Of a stretch of DNA of 34,417 bases, positions 1,977 to 33,590 are shown piece by piece. Origin of the DNA: a virus (lineage: Duplodnaviria > Caudoviricetes); IMG/VR virus record IMGVR_UViG_3300033816_000368, positions 1 through 34,417 of that record; one strand, written 5' to 3'. The notes beneath the pieces are model-generated. The model saw nothing but the letters and a program-made list of their open reading frames with translations. It searched no databases and was not told where the DNA came from. Made by a program: the position numbers and the translations under genes. The first letter of the stretch is position 1. Every line of letters begins with the position of its first letter.

Positions 1977-4900
1977 CTACTTACCGTTTGGAAGGTTAAG
2001 GACTTGTTGCATCTGATCGGCATCGTTATAACGACCCTTCTTCCGTAGCTCCGCAAGTGCGTTAGCAGTAGCTTCTCGCTGCAGGATGGCACTGACTTCT
2101 GGGAACTGCGTCATCTGTACCCAAGCCTGACGCTTGGCGTTTTTAAAGATGCTATCGACTGCTTGGTAGTGGACATATGTCGAAGCTTCAGTCAGCTGAC
2201 CTGCATCACGATCCTTTTCCATCTTCTGGATCGAAGCCATCATCTGTTGACCAGTCTTCTTGCCGTAGAAGAGTTCAGTCAGTTGTGCTTCGACATTCTG
2301 TTTTCCGATAAGCATCTGCCATTTACTCTTTAGTTGACCAGGAATAGGTCCACCATCAGGCTTGGTGTTGACCGAGACTTTTACGTCATACAGCGACCGC
2401 CACAGTGTTTGACGAGTGGCAGTGGGGGCAGTATTCAGTTGGAACGGCATCACAGCATTCCAAGTCCGAGTACCCCAGTCGTACAGCTTCAAGGGTTCAC
2501 CATTGAGCGTGTCGTATTTGTAGGGAAGCTCAGCAAGTTCTCCTGCCCACAGGTTACGGTTCTTCAGACTGTCTCGGAAGCCAGCCTCAAGTTCACGCAT
2601 CCCAGGGTTGAAGTATTTACCAACTTCATTCCGCATGCTTGACATAGGAATGTAGCTGTTCAGCATACCTGCGGCAACAGAGCCGATCTTGTCAGCATCC
2701 CGGGCACCCATCAACTCAGTAAGTTGAGAAAGCCCAAAGAGGAATGACTTATTGACAACGTTTGCTTGTACCAGATACCACAGGCGACCAATCATCTTTT
2801 CACTGAATGCTTCACCCATTTGTTTTTGAGTGTCGCCTACGTCAGCAACCATTGCGAGGAAGCTGTTGAATGGTTCAATCGAGTCGTAGCTGACAAACTT
2901 ATCGCCAACCATGATTGACCTAGGTTGCCACCCTTGTCCGATCCATGCATCCCTAAGTGTCTTGTCTTCAGGTCCATTACCAGTAAGACGGCCGGACATG
3001 TACAAACCACCAGCAAGGAAGATGACGGATGCACCCATTGCTTCACGGCCAGCAATCAATGCTTTAGCTGCTTGGTGATCATCAGCAGTAGAGATGCCGT
3101 ACTTCAACAGGTCAGGGTGGCCAGTTGGAAGGTTCTTGACTGCTGAGACCTCTTCGACAAACCGGTTCAGAAACGGTGTGTGTTTACCAGCCAGTTCAAG
3201 TGCGTTGTAGCCTGTCCGAGTGAACAGCATGAACGGCTTAGTGAACGGGTGAGCAGCAAAGGCTTGCTCTAAACGTTCCACAAGCTTGGGAATATCATTT
3301 GTCATTGCAGCTTCAGATGCTGAGTACTTAGCCATCTGATCTGTCAACATCCCACGTTCATCAAAGACCTCGTCGTAGAAAGCAGTTTCGTATCTGCTTA
3401 CAAGGTCTGGCATAGCAGCTTCATCTACAACTCGACCTGACTCGACCAAGGAGTCGTAGGCTTTGTGGTAGGCAATCTCACGCAACCTGGCACGACCAAT
3501 CATGTTATGGAAGGCCATGTCGGACGCGGACATAACACGTGAAGACCATGTGAGGAACGGGTTATTGTTCATCCACCGCAGTGTGTTCGCCCAGCCGTAA
3601 GCAGCTTGGTGGGCATCAGTACCACGGTTCTTGACCCACTCACCCATCGCTTCCCATTCAGCATCCGTATCGGTACGGGTGTAGTTGGTAGCAATGGTGT
3701 TCAGGTCGGGGATCTCGTTCCCGCTGAAGTTAGATTTGAGTTGATGACGGAAGATCTTCCATGATTCACCAATGCTGTCGGTCATACCGTTCAGCGATGC
3801 CCAAGCACCTCGTAACGCACGTTCGTCGCCACGCAGCATTGCACCCATCGCGGTCTGTACTGGACGTGTGAAGGTCACCAGGCCCGTACCAAAGGCTGCA
3901 CGGAGCGGCGTCTTGGGACCAGAAATTGTGCTGTGGATGATCAGGGAGCCAAGCTCTTTCTGGATAGCACTTTGATGGCGGATATCACCATCTTTGTAAC
4001 CAGTCAGCTTGTTAGCGAAGAACTCATCAACGTCAGCCCAAGTGGACAACTTGTCGTTCATTGAGAACGCATCGGTCACCAGCTTGAGCAGTTCATCTGA
4101 AGTATCGTTGTCAATTGCTTCACGGATGAGTTCTTTGATGTTCCGTTGACTATCGGCAATCTCAGTTAGCTTTGCACCGATTTCAGTCTTTGCTGGAGGT
4201 TTGACTGTTGTCTCACCATTCAGGTACTTCAGGTTGCTCAGTGCAGTACTACGGAGATACCGGCTTTGCTTGAGACCAATGCCAATAGCCGTGTAGCGGT
4301 CCAGCATTTGATCAAGTGTCCCATCCTTTACAGTGGGGTCTACCTGATCCATGATTGAGCGTTGAAGCTGTGCATAGTCACGCAGCTCGCGGTTCAGAGT
4401 ACCGGTCAGAACAGCAGCCTTGAGGTGGTCAACATCTGAGTAGAAATCAACTCCTGCATACCGCCCGTACTCGTCGTAGTTACGGGTGAACAGAGATTCA
4501 AACTCAGCATCAGTCATGTTGGCAATAGTCTTTCGCCCAGCAATGACTTCGTCGAACTCACGCATGACCTGCGGAGCCAGCTCATCGATGGGTACACGAT
4601 TGGCACGTAACTGCTCAATGGTCTGACGGAAGATCGGATCACGATCAACCCGCTTCATGTACTCCTCTTGGGTAATTGGAGTTCCACCGGGCGTGTTGTT
4701 AATCCGCTCTAGTTCGTTCTTAGTGATGAAGTTATTTGGCGTACCATCCATCTCCGACCATTTGGTTGACATGTGATGTGTACTTTCCAAGGTGTCCACA
4801 ATGGACCTTGTAGTGCTGTTGGCACGTCCCTGGTGGACATCACCACCTTCGTTGATGTAGGAATCAAACCCACGTTCACCATCGGGGTCAGCCTTCAGGC

Positions 4901-13365: not shown

Positions 13366-14613
13366 TCAGGAACGAGCAGACTGCAGCTCGATAGCAGCAG
13401 CGGGGTTCAGGGTGCCGCAACCCATGGCCAGACGGCCCAGGATCACATCGCCCTGATACAGCACAGAGACATCACCAGAGGTGGTCTGCACTTGAGGACC
13501 GATGGCCTCCACCACACCAGCAGCATCCTTCTGATAGATGAGGCCGCAGTGGGTGCTGAAGTCACCGGAGTAGTTGTTGTTCTCACCACTCACAGCAGCC
13601 ACGTTACCGGCCAGGAAAGGCAGGTTGTTGCTGCGCTTGATGGTGATACCAGCGATTTCATACAGGCCTTCACCGCTGTTCAGGTTACCTTGGGAGGCAC
13701 CGTAGTCACGGTTGAGGATGTTGGAATCGACCTGGCTGATCAGTGCGTAGTACTGACGGGGAGACAGCACAGCATGACGGCCAGTCTTGGGCAGGTTCTT
13801 CTCGTCGAGAATAGCTGCAGCTTCAAAGAAAGCGTCCACCAGAGACTGAGCATCAAACTCCTTCTGAACACCCAGTTGGATGATCGAACCACCGGGCTCA
13901 GGACCAGGAGCTGCAGTGATGGGGTGCGCCTCACGTGCGGCCTTGGCGATCATACGGAAGATCTTTTTGTCATAAGCCTCAGCGAGGGCATGACCGATCT
14001 TTTTGGAGATCTCGCCGCGCAGCGAGTAGTGAGCGAGAGTCTCGTCCAGGTCATACACAAAGGCAGAGCTGACGAGCAGGTCGTCACAGACGATGGTCTT
14101 CTCGGCCACCGGGGGATCACCACTACCAAGGATAGGAGTACCAGGGGTGTGGTAACCAGCGGTCATACGACCGGTAAAGATGAACTGCAGGGACTTGCCG
14201 TTCTTCAGAGTACGACGCTGCACGGTATCACGTGCAATCGTGGCGGACTCATAAGCTTTGAACAGCTCGCCGCTGAACAATTTGCTCCGTATCCTAGTCT
14301 TTCGATTAGGGGAGGACTATATCTTCATCCACTTGGGATGTCGGGCGCTAATCATGTATTACGTGCCACGCTTGACACACCATGTAGTCTCTGGACCTTT
14401 CTTGCAAGAACGTGCAAGACTTGGCTGCTGATTGCCATAGGTATATTATACCCTTAGGGTTCCAGCAATTCACCCGATGCACTCAGCCAATTACTTGGAT
14501 GAGGCCCCATTATTGAGGTAGGTAGCGTATTTGGTATCGTATGCACGATTACCAGCGGTATCGGCTACAGCTTTATTAAGAGTACCGAGTACGGATTGAG
14601 TGGCGTTAGCCAT
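13366..14613 (-). CDS. Major capsid protein (T7 gp10-like), two exons: 14613-14516 and 14284-13366, 338 aa after splicing
   Basis: Exon 2 encodes LFSGELFKAY...RTLKNGKSLQF...DDLLVSS...RLAMGCGTLNPAAAIEL. Exon 1 encodes MANATQSVLGTLNKAVADTAGNRAYDTKYATY and joins in frame (CT|C AAA = L K) when the intron is removed. Confidence 0.95.
14285..14515 (-). ncRNA. Group I self-splicing intron (231 nt, ORF-less, probably subgroup IA) in the major capsid gene
   Basis: Core elements: P GAAUUGCUGGAA (14471-14460), Q AAUCAGCAGC (14433-14424), R GUCCAGAGACUACA (14396-14383), S AAGAUAUAGUCC (14325-14314). The 5' exon ends in U within P1 (CCU|CA-AUAA-UGGGG, U.G pair) and the intron ends in G. P3 is UCGGGUG/CGCCCGA, P8 is CAUCC/GGAUG, and P2 and P9 have GNRA loops. 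Confidence 0.95.
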
Positions 14614-14763
14614 TGTTAGAAAAGAGAGAGAAGTTAATAGTTCTCCCTAACCGGTTAGGAATTCACAAGACGTGATGTCATGTGCATTCAAGTGTTTTGT
14701 TTTTTGTCTGTCTCTCCAGACTGTCAATGACTAAAGGGTGTCCGCCTTAGCGGGCCAATAGTC

Positions 14764-14809: not shown

Positions 14810-15094
14810 TTATGCGAATACTCGCACCGGCTGCTCAGGGCTGACCACATAGGCGTCCCAGCCCTCGGGCAGCTCACCGATGTAGTTCACATGCCAGCCG
14901 TCCAGCACCGTGGGAGGCGCCAGCACCTCGCCAGTTTCTGGGTCGTACTCACCGCCGATGGAGATGGTGCCGATTACATCCAGTGCATGGGTGTGACTAG
15001 CCGTGATGGGGTTCAACCCGTCATCCAACAGCCCTGCATTGTCCAAGGCAGTCATGCCAGATACGGCATCGGGAAAGCGTAGGTAGTGGGTCAT
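14810..15094 (-). CDS. Hypothetical protein, probable partner or chaperone of the upstream fibre-like protein
   Basis: 94 aa with ALDVIGTI...DGWHVN...P..P.RVFA. ATGA coupling to the upstream stop. Confidence 0.7.
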   Translation of the reverse strand: MTHYLRFPDAVSGMTALDNAGLLDDGLNPITASHTHALDVIGTISIGGEYDPETGEVLAPPTVLDGWHVNYIGELPEGWDAYVVSPEQPVRVFA

Positions 15095-16923
15095 TGCGTC
15101 ACCGCCTGGAGCGTGGAGTTGCTGAGGCGCTGGGGCCAGTAGGCTAAACGCGCAATAGTGCCGTTAGCGTAATTAGTATTAGCCGCGTTACGACCAATAT
15201 TTGCTTGAATAACTGCTGGAACTGTTCCCGTTGCGTCCGTTACTGGAGTGGCGCCATTTGCTGACAAAGCAAAATCATTTAATGCGTAGCAGCCAACCGA
15301 CTTAAGAACCGTATAAGGGGAATAAGATATATTCAGTGCTCCTGTCTGAGTTGTTCCGCTAACGACTACATTAAAGTTTGCTTGTGTTGCTGTTGTACGG
15401 CTAGTAATAGTGTCGTTGTTTGTAGTGTTAATGTTAACAATTGTATTAAATGCTCCAGGTGGAAGAATGGCCTGACTAAACACCGTCCCCTCATCCTGCC
15501 GATACCAGCTGCTGAAGTTCGCCCCCGTGATGCTGGCCACGTCTGCACTGCGGGTGACCGTTGCGGTTGTTGTGGGGATGTAGCTGGTGGGGAAAGCGCC
15601 GGCTTCTAGCTGCGCACCCCAGATCAGGATGGTGCCGGTGCCGTCGCCTTGGTAAGTAGTTCCTGTTCCGCCAATTAATAGAGCCGTGCGAATTTGCATA
15701 GCACCAGTGCCACTGGTCGTAGCAGTCATGGTGGTGGTAATTCGATACCAGCCGTTTGGGTAAGCAGTAATTATGTTTGTGGCACCAGTGGCGCTTGCCA
15801 CTATTGTTCCGTTGGTGATATTCGCCTTTATTCCAATAGTTGCATTCCCAAGCATTGCTGACGGAAACACCACTGCGACACTTTCTAGAGTACCCCGTTT
15901 CGCAAACACGGAGAATGTATAAGCAGTGCCGCTAGCAAAAGCTATACCTGGTTGTGTAATGATGTGGTTATTGGAAGACGCGTCCAACGTATCCCTTAGC
16001 TCCCAAGCTGTGTTTGTTCCGTCTGGTGCAATTCCAGCGGCGGCTGTTTCACTTGATAGTGTGTTTATCCATGTCGTATCAAACCCATTGCTCTGCAGCA
16101 GCAGGTTCGTCCTCTGCTCCTCCACCAGCAGCCCCAGGCTTTCGCCGGTCGTGGGGTTGTGGTCGAAGCGGGGCGCACTGTTAATCGTGCTGGTAGTAGG
16201 GATGTATTCACCCACACTAGACGACTGCTCTAGTTGGGCTCCCCAGAGGTAAATACCGGAGGTGTTATCGCCAGTGTAGTTGGCAACAGAAGTGCTAGTT
16301 GCTAATCTAAATTGAACCGCAGACGACGCGCTGGCGGTTGCAGCAACTGTAAATGAGCATCGAAACCATCCATCGCCAACATTAACAACAGTCGCTCCTG
16401 ATGTTGGCGTAGTGCCATTAGATAGATCAAAAAACGAATTAGCTTGAGCTCCTATAAATCCGGAGCCAAATGCAATGCTAAAAAACGTTCGTTCTGCAAC
16501 TTTTACAAAACACGACGCTGTGTAAGTAGTCCCAGAAGTATGAGCAATAATTTGTTGAATTAAATGAGTGCTAGTATTGCTGTTTTCAATTAACTTATCT
16601 GCCGTGAGGCTTCCATTGGGGCTCTGAATCACATTTGCGTTGACGCTGGTTTGGCCAGGCGTCCAACTCGCACTCTCAAACTCCTCACTCCGCAGCAGGA
16701 GGTTCGTCACCGCCGTCCGAATCAGCCCGTCGCTGCCCACGTAGGTGCCGCTGCTGGCGCGGGTGAAGGTGACAAGGTTCTGGCCACTTGCGGAATCAAT
16801 AAGACTCTTGTTAGCAGCGAAGTTGAGATCTAATGAAGGTAGTTGACCTGATAGGTCATAAAGCTGGTCACCAAACCCACGATGCGAAGAGTTTGCCGCC
16901 AGCTTGGTGCCAAGCAGTCTCAT
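15091..16923 (-). CDS. Virion fibre/decoration-like structural protein with two tandem beta-sandwich (carbohydrate-binding-like) repeats
   Basis: 610 aa. FTRASSGTY...PRFDH...GLLVEEQRTN framework, duplicated TNLLL.S..F...GW[FY]R...[IL]WGAQLE units, and PTSYIPT...TRSAD. Confidence 0.7.
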   Translation of the reverse strand: MRLLGTKLAANSSHRGFGDQLYDLSGQLPSLDLNFAANKSLIDSASGQNLVTFTRASSGTYVGSDGLIRTAVTNLLLRSEEFESASWTPGQTSVNANVIQSPNGSLTADKLIENSNTSTHLIQQIIAHTSGTTYTASCFVKVAERTFFSIAFGSGFIGAQANSFFDLSNGTTPTSGATVVNVGDGWFRCSFTVAATASASSAVQFRLATSTSVANYTGDNTSGIYLWGAQLEQSSSVGEYIPTTSTINSAPRFDHNPTTGESLGLLVEEQRTNLLLQSNGFDTTWINTLSSETAAAGIAPDGTNTAWELRDTLDASSNNHIITQPGIAFASGTAYTFSVFAKRGTLESVAVVFPSAMLGNATIGIKANITNGTIVASATGATNIITAYPNGWYRITTTMTATTSGTGAMQIRTALLIGGTGTTYQGDGTGTILIWGAQLEAGAFPTSYIPTTTATVTRSADVASITGANFSSWYRQDEGTVFSQAILPPGAFNTIVNINTTNNDTITSRTTATQANFNVVVSGTTQTGALNISYSPYTVLKSVGCYALNDFALSANGATPVTDATGTVPAVIQANIGRNAANTNYANGTIARLAYWPQRLSNSTLQAVTQ

Positions 16924-16925
16924 GA

Positions 16926-17270
16926 TTAGGTAAGCTCGGTAAGGGCCAAGCTACCATTTACAGTAGCTGCAGATTCACGAATGACAGCAATGTTTGCACC
17001 AAACGGTACAGCCAGATCAAGCCGCTCACCGTTGGCAATGAAGTGGCCAGTAGAGGCATTAGCAGTTTGAGTACCGACGCCAACTACATATCGAATATCA
17101 CAACCGCGAGCACGGATACTGATACGAGAGATGTTGGCAGTCAATGCTGTATTAGCAGAAGTTGTAGTAGCAGTAAGTTGCCTAGCTACGGTAGGAATGC
17201 CGAGAGTCTCAACATGCTCCGCATGCCGATTGTTCGGGACATTGAATGTAGTGGCGCCTGAATAGGTCAT
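16926..17270 (-). CDS. Hypothetical beta-rich protein (possible capsid/fibre adaptor)
   Basis: 114-aa ORF tightly packed between rlpA and the fibre gene. Confidence 0.65.
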   Translation of the reverse strand: MTYSGATTFNVPNNRHAEHVETLGIPTVARQLTATTTSANTALTANISRISIRARGCDIRYVVGVGTQTANASTGHFIANGERLDLAVPFGANIAVIRESAATVNGSLALTELT

Positions 17271-17272
17271 GA

Positions 17273-17578
17273 TTAATGTACCGGTGTGATGGTTACTTGA
17301 CCTACACCCATGCTCCTCAAGCCAATCGCATCAGCTGCTGCCCTACTCAAATCAATATCACGACCATGAACAAAAGGTCCACGATCATTAATAGTGACAT
17401 TCGTACACCTCTTGGTTGTGGTGCTACACACTCGGACTTTGGTTCCAAATGGGAGTGTGCGGTGAGCAGCAGTGTGTGCATTCATGTTGTAGATCTCACC
17501 AGAAGCGGTGCGTCTACCGTGATATGGAATGCCATACCACGAAGCGAGAGAAGCAAGTGTAAGTGTCAGAGTTAGCAT
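17273..17578 (-). CDS. rlpA: RlpA-like double-psi beta-barrel lytic transglycosylase
   Basis: ASWYG...GRRTASGEIYN...TAAHRTLPFGTKVRV...INDRGPFV.GR.IDLS..AA..IG is the RlpA/DPBB_1 signature. Confidence 0.9.
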   Translation of the reverse strand: MLTLTLTLASLASWYGIPYHGRRTASGEIYNMNAHTAAHRTLPFGTKVRVCSTTTKRCTNVTINDRGPFVHGRDIDLSRAAADAIGLRSMGVGQVTITPVH

Positions 17579-23714: not shown

Positions 23715-23895
23715 GTTCGTTTTCGAGGTAGTGGATTGCTTTGTCGAGGTCTGCGAGTGCGTCGTCTTTGTGTCCAGCACGGCAGATGTATTTGATTGCA
23801 TTTCCTAAGTGGTAGTTGAGTTGCTGGTCACGGACAAAATCCCAAACTTCTATGCTTCCACGTTTGTAGTAGCCTGGTCCCTTGGCATTGGCCAT
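23611..23895 (-). CDS. DUF3310 family protein (T7 gp1.7-like nucleotide kinase family)
   Basis: P.YY.RG.IEVWDF......YHLGNAIKYICRAGHK....DL.KAIHYL signature. Confidence 0.85.
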   Translation of the reverse strand: MANAKGPGYYKRGSIEVWDFVRDQQLNYHLGNAIKYICRAGHKDDALADLDKAIHYLENEREFLRNSCLRVQEQVRAAARADDFLFESAAEFDR

Positions 23896-24044
23896 TGTTT
23901 AACTAGGTTAGATACGGTGTTTGAAAGAACAAAGTTCTGATGCTGTAGTGCCATGAAGACCGTGATGATGTCTTCCTTCTTGGCGTCAGGCAGCAGATCC
24001 GTCAGCCGCCGCAGCTTGAACTGTTGTTCCATTGTCAGCTCCAT
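23850..24044 (-). CDS. nblA: NblA-like phycobilisome degradation adaptor (N-terminal extension possible; frame open to 24143)
   Basis: ELTMEQQFKLRRL...KEDIITVFMALQHQNFVLSNTVSNLVKQW fits the NblA pattern L[ST].EQ.F.L...Q......N....L.K.W. Confidence 0.75.
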   Translation of the reverse strand: MELTMEQQFKLRRLTDLLPDAKKEDIITVFMALQHQNFVLSNTVSNLVKQWPMPRDQATTNVEA

Positions 24045-24780
24045 CACTGGAGGTGGGGGTCCAAAGGACTGGGGTGTTTGTGTCACGGTCGAAGTTTTCG
24101 TATTGAAGGATTTTGGCAAGCCGTGCATTAGAAAGAGCATCATCAGCAGTCAGTCCTTTTTCTTCAAAGGTTTCAACAACGGTGTCCCATGTCCAACCTT
24201 TCTTTTCAAACAGAGCCACAGCCCGTTTGATTCCAATCCCAGGAACACCTCCGTAGCCATCCGTCTGGTCACCACTCATCGTTTGAATCAGGTGCCAACG
24301 ATCCCCCATCTCCTTGGTGATTTCAGTCACAGGGTTTGTTAGGTCAAATAGTTGACCAGGGATCTGCCGCATGTCTTTGTCTGGTGAACACAAGATGTGG
24401 CCAGCATCAGCCTCAACAGGATCAGTAGCGAAGACACCCAGAGCATCATCTGCTTCCAGGTCGTCAATCATGATCGTGTCGTAGTTATCGCCGCACCAGT
24501 TGAGCAAACGTTTGTAGCCGCATGGCTTCTTACGAGTTCGGTGTCCTTTGTATTCGGGAGAAATTTTCTTCCTGAAATTTGTAGGGCTGCTGAAGAACAG
24601 CATCACATCATCCATCCCACCGAGACACTCGACAATGCTGTTGAGTTCCCGTTGGAACATGTCCAAGACATCGGAGAACCGACTGGTGACAACGATTACG
24701 TCATTACCAAAGTCTGTCTCGTCTTCGCAGGCTGCACATGATTTGTATGCGAGGTAATCAGCGTCAATGAGTAGTGTCAT
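23986..24780 (-). CDS. 5'-3' exonuclease (T7 gp6-like)
   Basis: LLIDAD, NFRK...YKGHR, LEADDALG, SPDKDMRQIPG and GDQTDGYGGVPGIG motifs. Confidence 0.95.
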   Translation of the reverse strand: MTLLIDADYLAYKSCAACEDETDFGNDVIVVTSRFSDVLDMFQRELNSIVECLGGMDDVMLFFSSPTNFRKKISPEYKGHRTRKKPCGYKRLLNWCGDNYDTIMIDDLEADDALGVFATDPVEADAGHILCSPDKDMRQIPGQLFDLTNPVTEITKEMGDRWHLIQTMSGDQTDGYGGVPGIGIKRAVALFEKKGWTWDTVVETFEEKGLTADDALSNARLAKILQYENFDRDTNTPVLWTPTSSDGADNGTTVQAAAADGSAA

Positions 24781-24917: not shown

Positions 24918-25316
24918 TTATTTTTCCCAGAAGTTTTCAAGGCCAGCCGGCACTGTCTTTGGATGCCAACTAATCTGATGTGTGATTGGATGTACTGCGA
25001 TCATGTACACACCAGGCGCGACTCTTCCAATTTGTGGAGCGTAGTAGTTTCTTCCACGTTTAGTCATTACCTTCACATCACACTTCAAGAGGTGCCCCTT
25101 GTGCGATATCACTAGATCTGTATCCCCACTACAGCCTATGTTTTTGAAGACTTCAGCACCCTTTTTCCAAGCAACTAGTGAGGTGTGCAACTCCCAGTAG
25201 TCACCCTTTCTGTTGCAGTCAGTGGGTTTCAGCCCAGGTTTTCCCGGTACTAGCTTCAGCGGCGATTGGAATTCGGAGGTTGTAGTACTCTCCAGATTGA
25301 GCTGCTGCGAGTTCAA
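24918..25316 (-). CDS. Free-standing PD-(D/E)XK endonuclease resembling the I-Ssp6803I homing endonuclease family; start uncertain (TTG 25316 or CTG 25232)
   Basis: KGDYWE...KKGAEVFKNIG...DLVISHKGHLLKCDVK has the KGD..E/Q...G..V....G...DLV....G.LLK.[QD]VK layout of this family. Confidence 0.7.
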   Translation of the reverse strand: MNSQQLNLESTTTSEFQSPLKLVPGKPGLKPTDCNRKGDYWELHTSLVAWKKGAEVFKNIGCSGDTDLVISHKGHLLKCDVKVMTKRGRNYYAPQIGRVAPGVYMIAVHPITHQISWHPKTVPAGLENFWEK

Positions 25317-32549: not shown

Positions 32550-33590
32550 CTAGACGGGCTGGGAAGCCTGCAACAGAGCCATTTGACGGGCCTGCTCAAA
32601 GGCCTGGAATTCCAGGAACTTTGCCCAGACCTGTGGGTCAGGCATGACCATAGCAGGTGCCACTACCGGCTCAACTTTGGGCGTCGTAACGCGGGGTTGG
32701 TCGGACAGACCCCTCATCGCCTCGACCTTGGCGCGGGGGCTGACCTTGAGATACACCATCGTGCTGTCGATGTGTTTGTGACCCATCAAGGCTTGAATCG
32801 TGGCAATGGGCACACCCTTATCGTTGAGCCACGTAGCAAAGCTATGGCGCAGTGTGTGATAGACATAGTGGTTGTCAATCTTGAGATGGTCCAACACTTT
32901 GTTGTAGGCACGGCGGAGCTGTTCGGCTCGCGTGAACTCAGGGAACAACCGACCCGAGTTCTCCCGGCAACGGCGTTCAATGATGTCAAAGATACGATCC
33001 TCAATGGGAATCGCTCGCCAGTTGCGGGCCTTGGTGACATGGCCATCAGGGCGGCCACCAAAGTGGATTAACCGCTGGCCCAGATCGACATCCTTAGCCG
33101 TGAGCTTGAGGATCTCCGTCTGACGGCCACCTGTGTAGGCAGCCACTAGGATGTTGTCAGCTAAGTCCCTGCGCCGGAACGGATCCAACGCGGTGTAGTA
33201 GAGCTGTTCAACCTCATCTTTGGAGAACCAATGGATGCGGCGATCATCGACCTTGCGCTTGATGTACTTGTGGTACGGCAAGGCTTTGATCTTCTTCTTT
33301 TCCCAGCAGTGGGTAAGAACTGTGCCCAAATACGTGGGGATCTTGTTGGTGGTCCGTGGTGACCACCCCCTCTCATCCTCTAACTCATACATCAACTCAG
33401 AGACATGCTCTTCGTCGAGGTGCTTGATCGCAAAGCCAGGGCCACGAGCGTTGAGGATGTGCTGAATCACATAGTGAACGGCACAGTTGGACATGTCGTG
33501 CTTGGACATGCGGAGCCGCTCTTGGATCCATGCTTCTCTCGTGCGGTACGTGTAGTCAATACACTGACCGAGTTTAGTCAGAGTCTCCAT
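32550..33590 (-). CDS. int: Tyrosine recombinase / phage integrase
   Basis: Catalytic residues intact: YTGGR, TKA, HTLRH, MGH and TMVY. Confidence 0.95.
   Translation of the reverse strand: METLTKLGQCIDYTYRTREAWIQERLRMSKHDMSNCAVHYVIQHILNARGPGFAIKHLDEEHVSELMYELEDERGWSPRTTNKIPTYLGTVLTHCWEKKKIKALPYHKYIKRKVDDRRIHWFSKDEVEQLYYTALDPFRRRDLADNILVAAYTGGRQTEILKLTAKDVDLGQRLIHFGGRPDGHVTKARNWRAIPIEDRIFDIIERRCRENSGRLFPEFTRAEQLRRAYNKVLDHLKIDNHYVYHTLRHSFATWLNDKGVPIATIQALMGHKHIDSTMVYLKVSPRAKVEAMRGLSDQPRVTTPKVEPVVAPAMVMPDPQVWAKFLEFQAFEQARQMALLQASQPV

Follow-up and report, generated by a model that had tools for sequence, protein, structure and literature searches.

Predicted self-splicing group I introns in the major capsid genes of T7-like cyanophages: an interruption at codon 33 and its relatives at other sites

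In the stretch of viral DNA analysed here (IMG/VR record IMGVR_UViG_3300033816_000368, 34,417 nucleotides; hereafter the window), the ORF caller starts the major capsid gene at a TTG at position 14280, which lies inside what is described below as exon 2, and a further piece of capsid-like sequence lies upstream. This raises the question of whether the segment between the two is an intron that has to be removed before full-length capsid protein can be made and, if so, whether it serves the phage or simply travels with it. The original prediction, made from the letters alone, proposed a group I intron of subgroup IA that splices itself and gates the production of capsid protein.

Results

A group I intron in the capsid gene

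The capsid locus consists of the following parts.
14516..14613, minus strand: exon 1 of the major capsid protein gene, 98 nt, with ATG at 14613, 32 codons plus 2 nt and a final U
14285..14515, minus strand: group I intron, subgroup IA-like, without an ORF, 231 nt (RF00028, skipped in intron-less alleles, homologue in L122)
14491..14493, minus strand: in-frame TAA in the P2 loop, ending the unspliced frame after 40 aa
13366..14284, minus strand: exon 2, T7 gp10A-like major capsid gene (Pfam PF21703, 283.5 bits)

These boundaries of exon 1, intron and exon 2 are exactly the ones originally proposed, and a covariance-model search bears out the group I call: 14515-14285 (minus strand) matches Rfam Intron_gpI (RF00028) with 100.0 bits against a gathering threshold of 50 bits (E 5.8e-25, model positions 1-253). 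It is the sole Rfam match within the window and likewise in the complete 44,259-bp IMG/VR assembly of the same phage, and its GC content is 47.6%, against 56.4% in exon 2. The insertion interrupts codon 33 of the phage's only major capsid gene, and its excision gives a joined frame of 338 aa. Exon 2 is 90.8% identical to the major capsid protein of Synechococcus phage S-CBP1, with capsid identities of 85-91% to S-CBP1, S-CBP3, S-CBP4 and S-SRP01, and the genes follow the T7-like order of portal, scaffold, capsid and tail tubes (PF21703, PF05396, ORF order), so that, judged by domains, gene order and identities, the window phage is the T7-like cyanophage it had been taken for.

In intron-less relatives and in PDB 2xd8 (for which L007 served as proxy query) the N-terminus is homologous to exon 1, and cyanopodovirus and T7 capsids of known structure align with this region. 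Exon 1 is likely to be needed, because the residues around the junction (28-29 and 32-36) are almost invariant across 106 intron-less capsids. The unspliced RNA does run into the TAA as anticipated, which supports the view that full-length capsid from the ATG at 14613 requires splicing.

Intron-less alleles fix the boundaries

When the proposed YATYL/KLFSGE-type junction was aligned with intron-less capsids, it proved contiguous in 85 of the 86 nearest relatives (6 cultured, 80 from IMG/VR), the remaining locus being truncated and uninformative; the site-33 intron is carried by none of these 86 loci. Near-identical strains without the intron also exist, and DNA contigs that lack it, from runs X2, X3 and X14, each skip a net 231 nt (364-133, 235-4 and 282-51), so that the intron boundaries are fixed independently by intron-less alleles. 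The intron-plus stretch was found in one piece, with 0 differences, in the lake-water runs X1 and X2, from two studies of which the one or the other may have yielded the record, and it is also whole in the complete 44,259-bp genome. A survey of metagenomes thus recovers both the intron-plus allele (X1, X2) and the intron-minus allele (X2, X3, X14), and an assembly chimera, which we had considered, is ruled out by the intact stretch in two runs and the complete genome. The X14 contig, which lies on 14283-14566, comes from an intron-less strain with a nearly identical exon 2 (7 differences in 356 nt), in which the 50 nt immediately upstream of the insertion site diverge, a pattern compatible with a co-conversion tract.

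Informative spliced RNA was not found in contigs of the runs listed as RNA (X14, X19 and X20), and run X14, though so listed, is probably DNA. One RNA contig of X19 crosses the junction; its exon 1 differs from that of the window at 4 of 20 nt, and an intron-less relative is for this reason the more likely source. X19 and X20 contain only a small share of the window's words and are uninformative on habitat.

Predicted fold

Self-splicing of the window intron is predicted from the following modelled fold.
14505..14518, minus strand: P1 with the 5' splice site (C14518-G14505, C14517-G14506, U14516.G14507, C14515-G14508, A14514-U14509)
14426..14477, minus strand: P3 5' strand (14477-14471), P4 (14467-14462/14431-14426) and P5; from RF00028 and covariation
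14395..14425, minus strand: P6 and P6a; loop L6a (14412-14407) is one P11-type partner
within 14353..14391, minus strand: P7 5' strand, with the guanosine-binding pair G14389-C14315; from covariation
within 14353..14391, minus strand: P7.1 (14384-14381/14356-14353) and P7.1a (14378-14373/14368-14363); from covariation
within 14353..14391, minus strand: loop L7.1a (14372-14369), the other P11-type partner
14314..14347, minus strand: P3 3' strand, P8, J8/7 and P7 3' strand; from RF00028 and covariation
14285..14313, minus strand: P9.0 (14313-14311/14288-14286), P9 with a GAAA loop, and the terminal G 14285 as 3' splice site; from sequence and L122

The P1 guide also pairs with exon 2 to form P10 (-2.6 kcal/mol). 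Two helices of the first drawing needed revision: P4 forms, but its register was off, the correct helix being UGCUGG/UCAGCA in place of one that had included a base of P6, and the extra stem noticed between P7 and P3 is real, but is actually P7.1a (a name that we take to follow the Michel-Westhof scheme), seated on the longer P7.1 helix CAUG/CAUG. Plain minimum-free-energy folding of the intron gave a weak signal (z -1.87), which is expected because the core is pseudoknotted.

The same site is occupied in a second phage. In locus L122, where the capsid shows 76% identity, an intron of 230 nt (81.4 bits) is inserted at exactly this nucleotide position; it is 74.5% identical overall to the window intron, and its P2, P6a, P7.1a, P9 and all three P9.0 pairs have changed yet are still paired. 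Because three pairs of P9.0 change in a compensatory way, the 3' splice site is located without recourse to the protein alignment.

A family of introns at 11 sites

The original prediction implied a lone case and in this respect understated the novelty of the intron, which belongs to a multi-site lineage in cyanopodovirus capsid genes. At least 96 distinct introns of 194-233 nt, without an ORF, occupy 11 sites in T7-like cyanophage capsid genes (125 partly redundant loci). By site, in window codon numbers with the number of introns in brackets, they are distributed as follows.
33 (2), 39 (17), 77 (27), 110 (1), 118 (13), 124 (1)
185 (2), 210 (3), 211 (2), 307 (7), 312 (21)

Clustering the 96 introns at 95% identity leaves 62 groups, and at 90% it leaves 42; the copy number per capsid gene is 0-4, L322 has four, all above the Rfam cut-off, and an Rfam check of 10 family loci gave 17 matches of 73.6-109.5 bits. 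An in-frame stop is present in 96/96 introns, and none of the 96 has room for an internal endonuclease ORF, the longest stop-free run being 74 codons (66 introns).

The collection was built from a P7/P7.1 motif search, which gave 58 IMG/VR and 67 metagenome loci (125), 89 of them with a T7-like capsid gene; 104 introns were called in these 89, of which one was dropped and 66 were distinct. A variant motif gave 120 further viral loci (from half of the collection) and 120 genome loci, 42 with a capsid gene, and added 30 new introns. Rows dropped were L085 (truncated), L403 (doubtful boundary), 4 + 2 truncated introns and L496 (a psbA intron). Since the boundary-calling script imposed the terminal U and G, these letters are not independent evidence for the family; P9.0 (61 of 66) and P10 (87 of 96), given below, do count as such. 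By a rough estimate, a few per cent of the cyanopodovirus capsid loci in IMG/VR carry such introns (some 85 contigs against about 2,700 estimated stretches), with one of the scans having taken in half of the IMG/VR collection.

Searches with other patterns gave the window phage alone among 18 loci (3' junction), the window phage, L122, many intron-less capsids and chance matches among 62 loci (5' junction), and one cyanopodovirus capsid intron, L217 on a contig already in the set, among 122 loci (generic core). No podovirus capsid intron in cultured phages appeared among the blastn matches listed (best 40 of 225; best 40 of 276), and in the best 40 of 1,507 tblastn matches the capsid was unbroken except in P-SSP2 and P-SSP3, where the type of break, judged from three IMG/VR relatives (L120, L140, L146), is an in-frame protein insert. 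In these three, the insert is Thr/Gly-rich, about 97 aa long and located near capsid residue 257; we rejected it as an intron, as it is an in-frame protein domain. A plasmid search gave a single weak 52-nt match. In bacterial genomes a capsid intron was present in 2 of 120 motif loci, both from one MAG labelled Gammaproteobacteria, and these are probably mis-binned phage contigs.

Outside the capsid gene, introns of this lineage interrupt terL, DNA polymerase, tRNA and psbA genes (unannotated loci identified by motifs). The terL introns are in L303, L311, L314, L337 and L413 and those of DNA polymerase A in L325, L334, L349 and L412; in the annotation of Vibrio phage 1.187.O, terL is split into three pieces and no intron is recorded. 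Read by eye, the anticodon loop of a tRNA is interrupted after CAT by family introns in L362 and L397, and in L352, L389, L391 and L393 they apparently lie in the T-loop of a tRNA- or tmRNA-like gene. L496:742-944 is a psbA intron in a T7-like cyanophage at the S-PM2 intron site, and the capsid gene of L496 is intron-less.

Several capsid introns are strongly reduced. The site 210 introns (L304:3022-3218, L318, L319, L323, L328, L385) are 197 nt long, with a very short P5 and a terminal G 7 nt past P7, hence no P9, and still score 82 Rfam bits. At site 77, L296, L301, L324, L326, L330, L336 and L343 carry variants of 196-207 nt without P2, of which L301, L326 and L330 are additionally almost without P8; these short variants are candidate minimal natural ribozymes. 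A further peculiarity is found at site 39 (e.g. L312, L298, L293), where 15/17 introns end in an ATG in the exon-2 frame after a purine-rich stretch, vs 4/79 elsewhere. The ATG may be there through ancestry together with the constraint that P9.0 imposes, or it may let a shortened capsid be made from RNA that is left unspliced.

Covariation and subgroup

Covariation was scored over 66 introns. Paired cells amount to 455/462 in P3, 396/396 in P4, 190/198 in P6, 461/462 in P6a, 396/396 in P7, 264/264 in P7.1 (a count partly fixed by the search pattern) and 392/396 in P7.1a, and P3, P4, P6, P6a, P7, P7.1, P7.1a and P8 are 96-100% paired with double changes. The guanosine-binding G-C pair of P7 is present in 66/66, the pair preceding the P7 bulge occurs as A-U, G-C, U-A and C-G, and the P9.0 pairs are found in 61/66; the pair count for P2 (62%) is unreliable because the 5' end aligns badly. 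The loops of P6a and P7.1a are complementary, with at least 4 Watson-Crick pairs in 62 of the 66 and 3 plus a possible G-U in the other 4, and the loop-loop pair occurs in two swapped polarities between lineages. Shuffles, which ignore kinship, gave a mean of 30 and a maximum of 43 of 66.

The swapped loop-loop pair fits the P11 pseudoknot of subgroup IA, which the available text of PMC12088405 describes for subgroup IA1 as joining an extension of P7 to one of P6; helices P7.1/P7.2 between P7 and P3 are class features according to the review PMC3984707, as far as its accessible part goes. The P7.1/P7.1a helices and the P11-type covariation support the subgroup IA first suggested, and on these features we file the intron as IA1-like. 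Guides are fitted to their sites, in that for 87 of 96 introns the P10 pairing of the guide is stronger to the exon 2 that follows it than to those of other sites (-2.95 vs -0.27 kcal/mol).

Relation to known introns

Capsid introns have been published before. In the major capsid gene of mycobacteriophage LittleE, RT-PCR together with sequencing of the protein's N-terminus showed splicing (Pope et al. 2013, PMC3706429, in the portion available), and the same source cites a major capsid intron in lactococcal phage Tuc2009. The LittleE intron resembles that of the window in lying near the 5' end of the capsid gene, with a U before it and a G as its last letter, and in making splicing necessary for the most abundant virion protein; it differs in belonging to a siphovirus, in its length of about 820 nt with an endonuclease ORF and in its single site, whereas the window has a T7-like podovirus and a 231-nt, ORF-less intron, at one of the 11 sites of its family, with predicted splicing. 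Crass-like phages of the Delta and Zeta groups have group I introns in their MCP genes, by the accessible text of Yutin et al. 2021 (PMC7886860), and as in the window family there are multiple introns per capsid gene, derived from metagenomes; unlike the family, they were detected via endonuclease domains, in large gut phages that are not T7-like. Jumbo gut phages are described, in the part of that literature at hand, as having many short introns.

Closer in sequence are two psbA introns, each ORF-less and 62.8% identical to the window intron: that of S-PM2 (212 nt), which comes with the free-standing F-CphI, and intron 2 of S-CBWM1 (227 nt), which scores 130 bits on the family profile and has P7.1/P7.1a and the loop pair as in the family. 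They differ in gene and in that the phages are not T7-like, and collaborative homing has been shown for S-PM2 only. T7-like phages are represented by the self-splicing group IA2 intron within cyanophage Pf-WMP3's DNA polymerase gene (Kong et al. 2012, PMC3428280, consulted in part), which differs in its gene, its 672 nt and its HNH enzyme I-PfoP3I, and by the DNA polymerase introns of PhiI/W31 cited there. The C.a.mtLSU intron of Candida albicans (IA1) has a P11 joining a P7 extension to an extended P6 stem, as in the window family; in the text seen of PMC12088405 it is a mitochondrial rRNA intron with a P9.1 module, which the compact window intron lacks.

The novelty originally claimed was thus overstated, given the capsid introns of LittleE, Tuc2009 and crAss-like phages; what stands is that no report of an intron in a T7-like capsid gene was found, in a literature search that covered few subscription papers and no supplements. 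The text on the Selles Vidal 2025 database mentions neither 'capsid' nor 'phage'. The window intron is real and of a known class, lies in a host gene and phage group without a report found, and represents a sizeable multi-site lineage.

Discussion

A tolerated passenger or a regulator

We consider it probable that this 231-nt ORF-less group I intron, predicted to self-splice from late mRNA, is a tolerated selfish passenger and not a regulator. Group I splicing proceeds in two guanosine-dependent steps. By group I chemistry, free guanosine bound at G14389-C14315 would attack the U14516.G14507 site in P1, and the exon-1 3'-OH would next attack after G14285, aligned by P9.0 and P10, while the P6a-P7.1a loop-loop pair (P11) would brace the small core; the early stop would free the RNA of ribosomes, letting the intron fold. 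More speculatively, the intron could spread between co-infecting phages by recombination, perhaps helped in trans by free-standing homing endonucleases adjoining the capsid gene (collaborative homing), and might more rarely jump to new sites. The patchiness of the intron, which the nearest relatives lack, makes a selfish passenger more likely, as does the presence of its lineage in psbA, terL, DNA polymerase and tRNA genes, and the patchy distribution together with the mixing of sites on the intron tree points to a mobile one: the tree requires 11 changes of site vs a minimum of 8, and sites 39, 77 and 307 are not single groups, on 226 columns and with the reservation that recombination between introns could give the same picture.

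According to the original prediction, ribozyme activity gates capsid output, such that a splicing rate set by GTP, Mg2+ or the light-dependent state of the host would tune the timing or amount of capsid. Full-length capsid does appear to need splicing obligatorily, the lineage is concentrated in one highly expressed late gene with its structure kept without any endonuclease, and the S-SRM01 paper, in its accessible text, cites light-linked upregulation for a psbA intron (PMC8557907). However, conserved structure is expected anyway because a failure of splicing is lethal, the intron is missing in the nearest relatives (80 from IMG/VR, 6 cultured) and in all cultured ones examined, the family is spread across 11 sites, each gene holding 0-4 copies, and the Rfam search of the window found no aptamer family; we find no support for a gate and regard it as improbable. 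It is hardly credible that the intron is dead or bypassed, with translation of the capsid beginning at the TTG at 14280, a ribosome site supplied by the GGAG that ends the intron, and exon 1 unused. While GGAG does lie 4 nt ahead of the in-frame TTG, and the in-frame ATGs ending most site-39 introns could be read in the same way, such a start would lose 34 residues, nearly invariant ones among them, exon 1 is intact and the catalytic core fully conserved, L122 has CAA in place of the TTG and a terminal ATG that is out of frame, and introns at the internal sites 110-312 could not be bypassed in this way.

How the introns may move

Endonuclease genes do occur beside capsid genes: a LAGLIDADG gene stands immediately upstream in L122 (intron-plus), L420 and L047 (both intron-minus), and an endonuclease VII-type gene directly upstream in the intron-less L041. 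Endonucleases were not enriched beside intron-plus capsids (1/51 intron-plus vs 2/120 intron-minus loci), and no endonuclease gene adjoins the capsid gene of the window phage. Near site 33, L420 (H29) and L122 (Q35) have residues absent from 106 intron-less capsids. One could speculate that the intron acts as a shield, breaking the target site of a competing phage's capsid-gene homing endonuclease to the benefit of its carrier, for which the psbA/F-CphI arrangement of S-PM2 is a published precedent (PMC6083498, in the part seen). The LAGLIDADG and endonuclease VII genes of relatives would suit such a role, as would the mild bias of sites to conserved codons (mean 0.91 vs 0.84, p about 0.03, 8 sites), but such endonucleases are rare in the sampled loci (4 found) and 11 sites are not explicable by one enzyme, so that we think a shield rather unlikely.

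A route mainly through RNA, in which the introns would reverse-splice into the plentiful capsid mRNA and reverse transcription and recombination would follow, would fit introns of 194-233 nt of which none has room for an ORF, P1 guides for which 2-8 exon bases suffice, and the relatedness of introns that occupy different sites in a single, highly abundant transcript; kinship between introns at different sites is what the review PMC3984707, in its accessible part, names as the circumstantial sign of this route. The same review states that direct evidence for spread by reverse splicing is lacking, no reverse transcriptase is among the annotated ORFs of the window phage genome, and ancestors that once bore endonucleases would leave the same pattern; we judge this route unlikely. 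A broader reading, which we put forward tentatively and with more doubt than conviction, is that the capsid gene of T7-like cyanophages is a hitherto unrecognised hot spot in which a lineage of minimal, endonuclease-free ribozymes takes hold at new sites and spreads via trans-acting endonucleases or reverse splicing into the phage's most abundant mRNA, possibly throttling assembly. The family would then offer a natural setting in which to study how group I introns without an ORF move; in phages carrying as many as four introns, virion assembly might also be throttled through its dependence on splicing.

The 96 sequences at 11 sites extend capsid-gene introns to T7-like phages and show them to be recurrent there. 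As no member carries an endonuclease, the spread of ORF-less introns becomes directly testable with this set, and the natural loop swaps and the variants without P2 or P9 are ready material for minimal-ribozyme work. Gene callers cut short or split intron-bearing capsids, which affects a commonly used marker gene.

Other features of the genomes

Outside the window, the phage (L414, G001) carries near terL a gene of endonuclease VII type, which directly precedes terL, and two genes of HNH type (L414 positions 3837-4199, 2075-2320 and 2317-2646). A small ORF overlapping the end of the DNA polymerase gene (24918-25316, minus strand) has a weak PDDEXK_5 match (E 0.03, below the cut-off) and is possibly a free-standing endonuclease. 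A promoter scan gave matches at chance level only. The window also contains nblA and an integrase gene (23850-24143; 32550-33590, minus strand), and at 14810-17578 (minus strand) an RlpA-like gene and a tail-like gene lie between scaffold and capsid, where S-CBP1 has hli and psbA. Glutamine-II riboswitch matches (RF01704) were found upstream of the capsid region in L309, L304, L301, L294 and L322. Just before the capsid ATG of the window, at 14625-14648 (minus strand), there is a hairpin with AGGGAG in its stem and a U-rich run, and the leader of L496 is similar.
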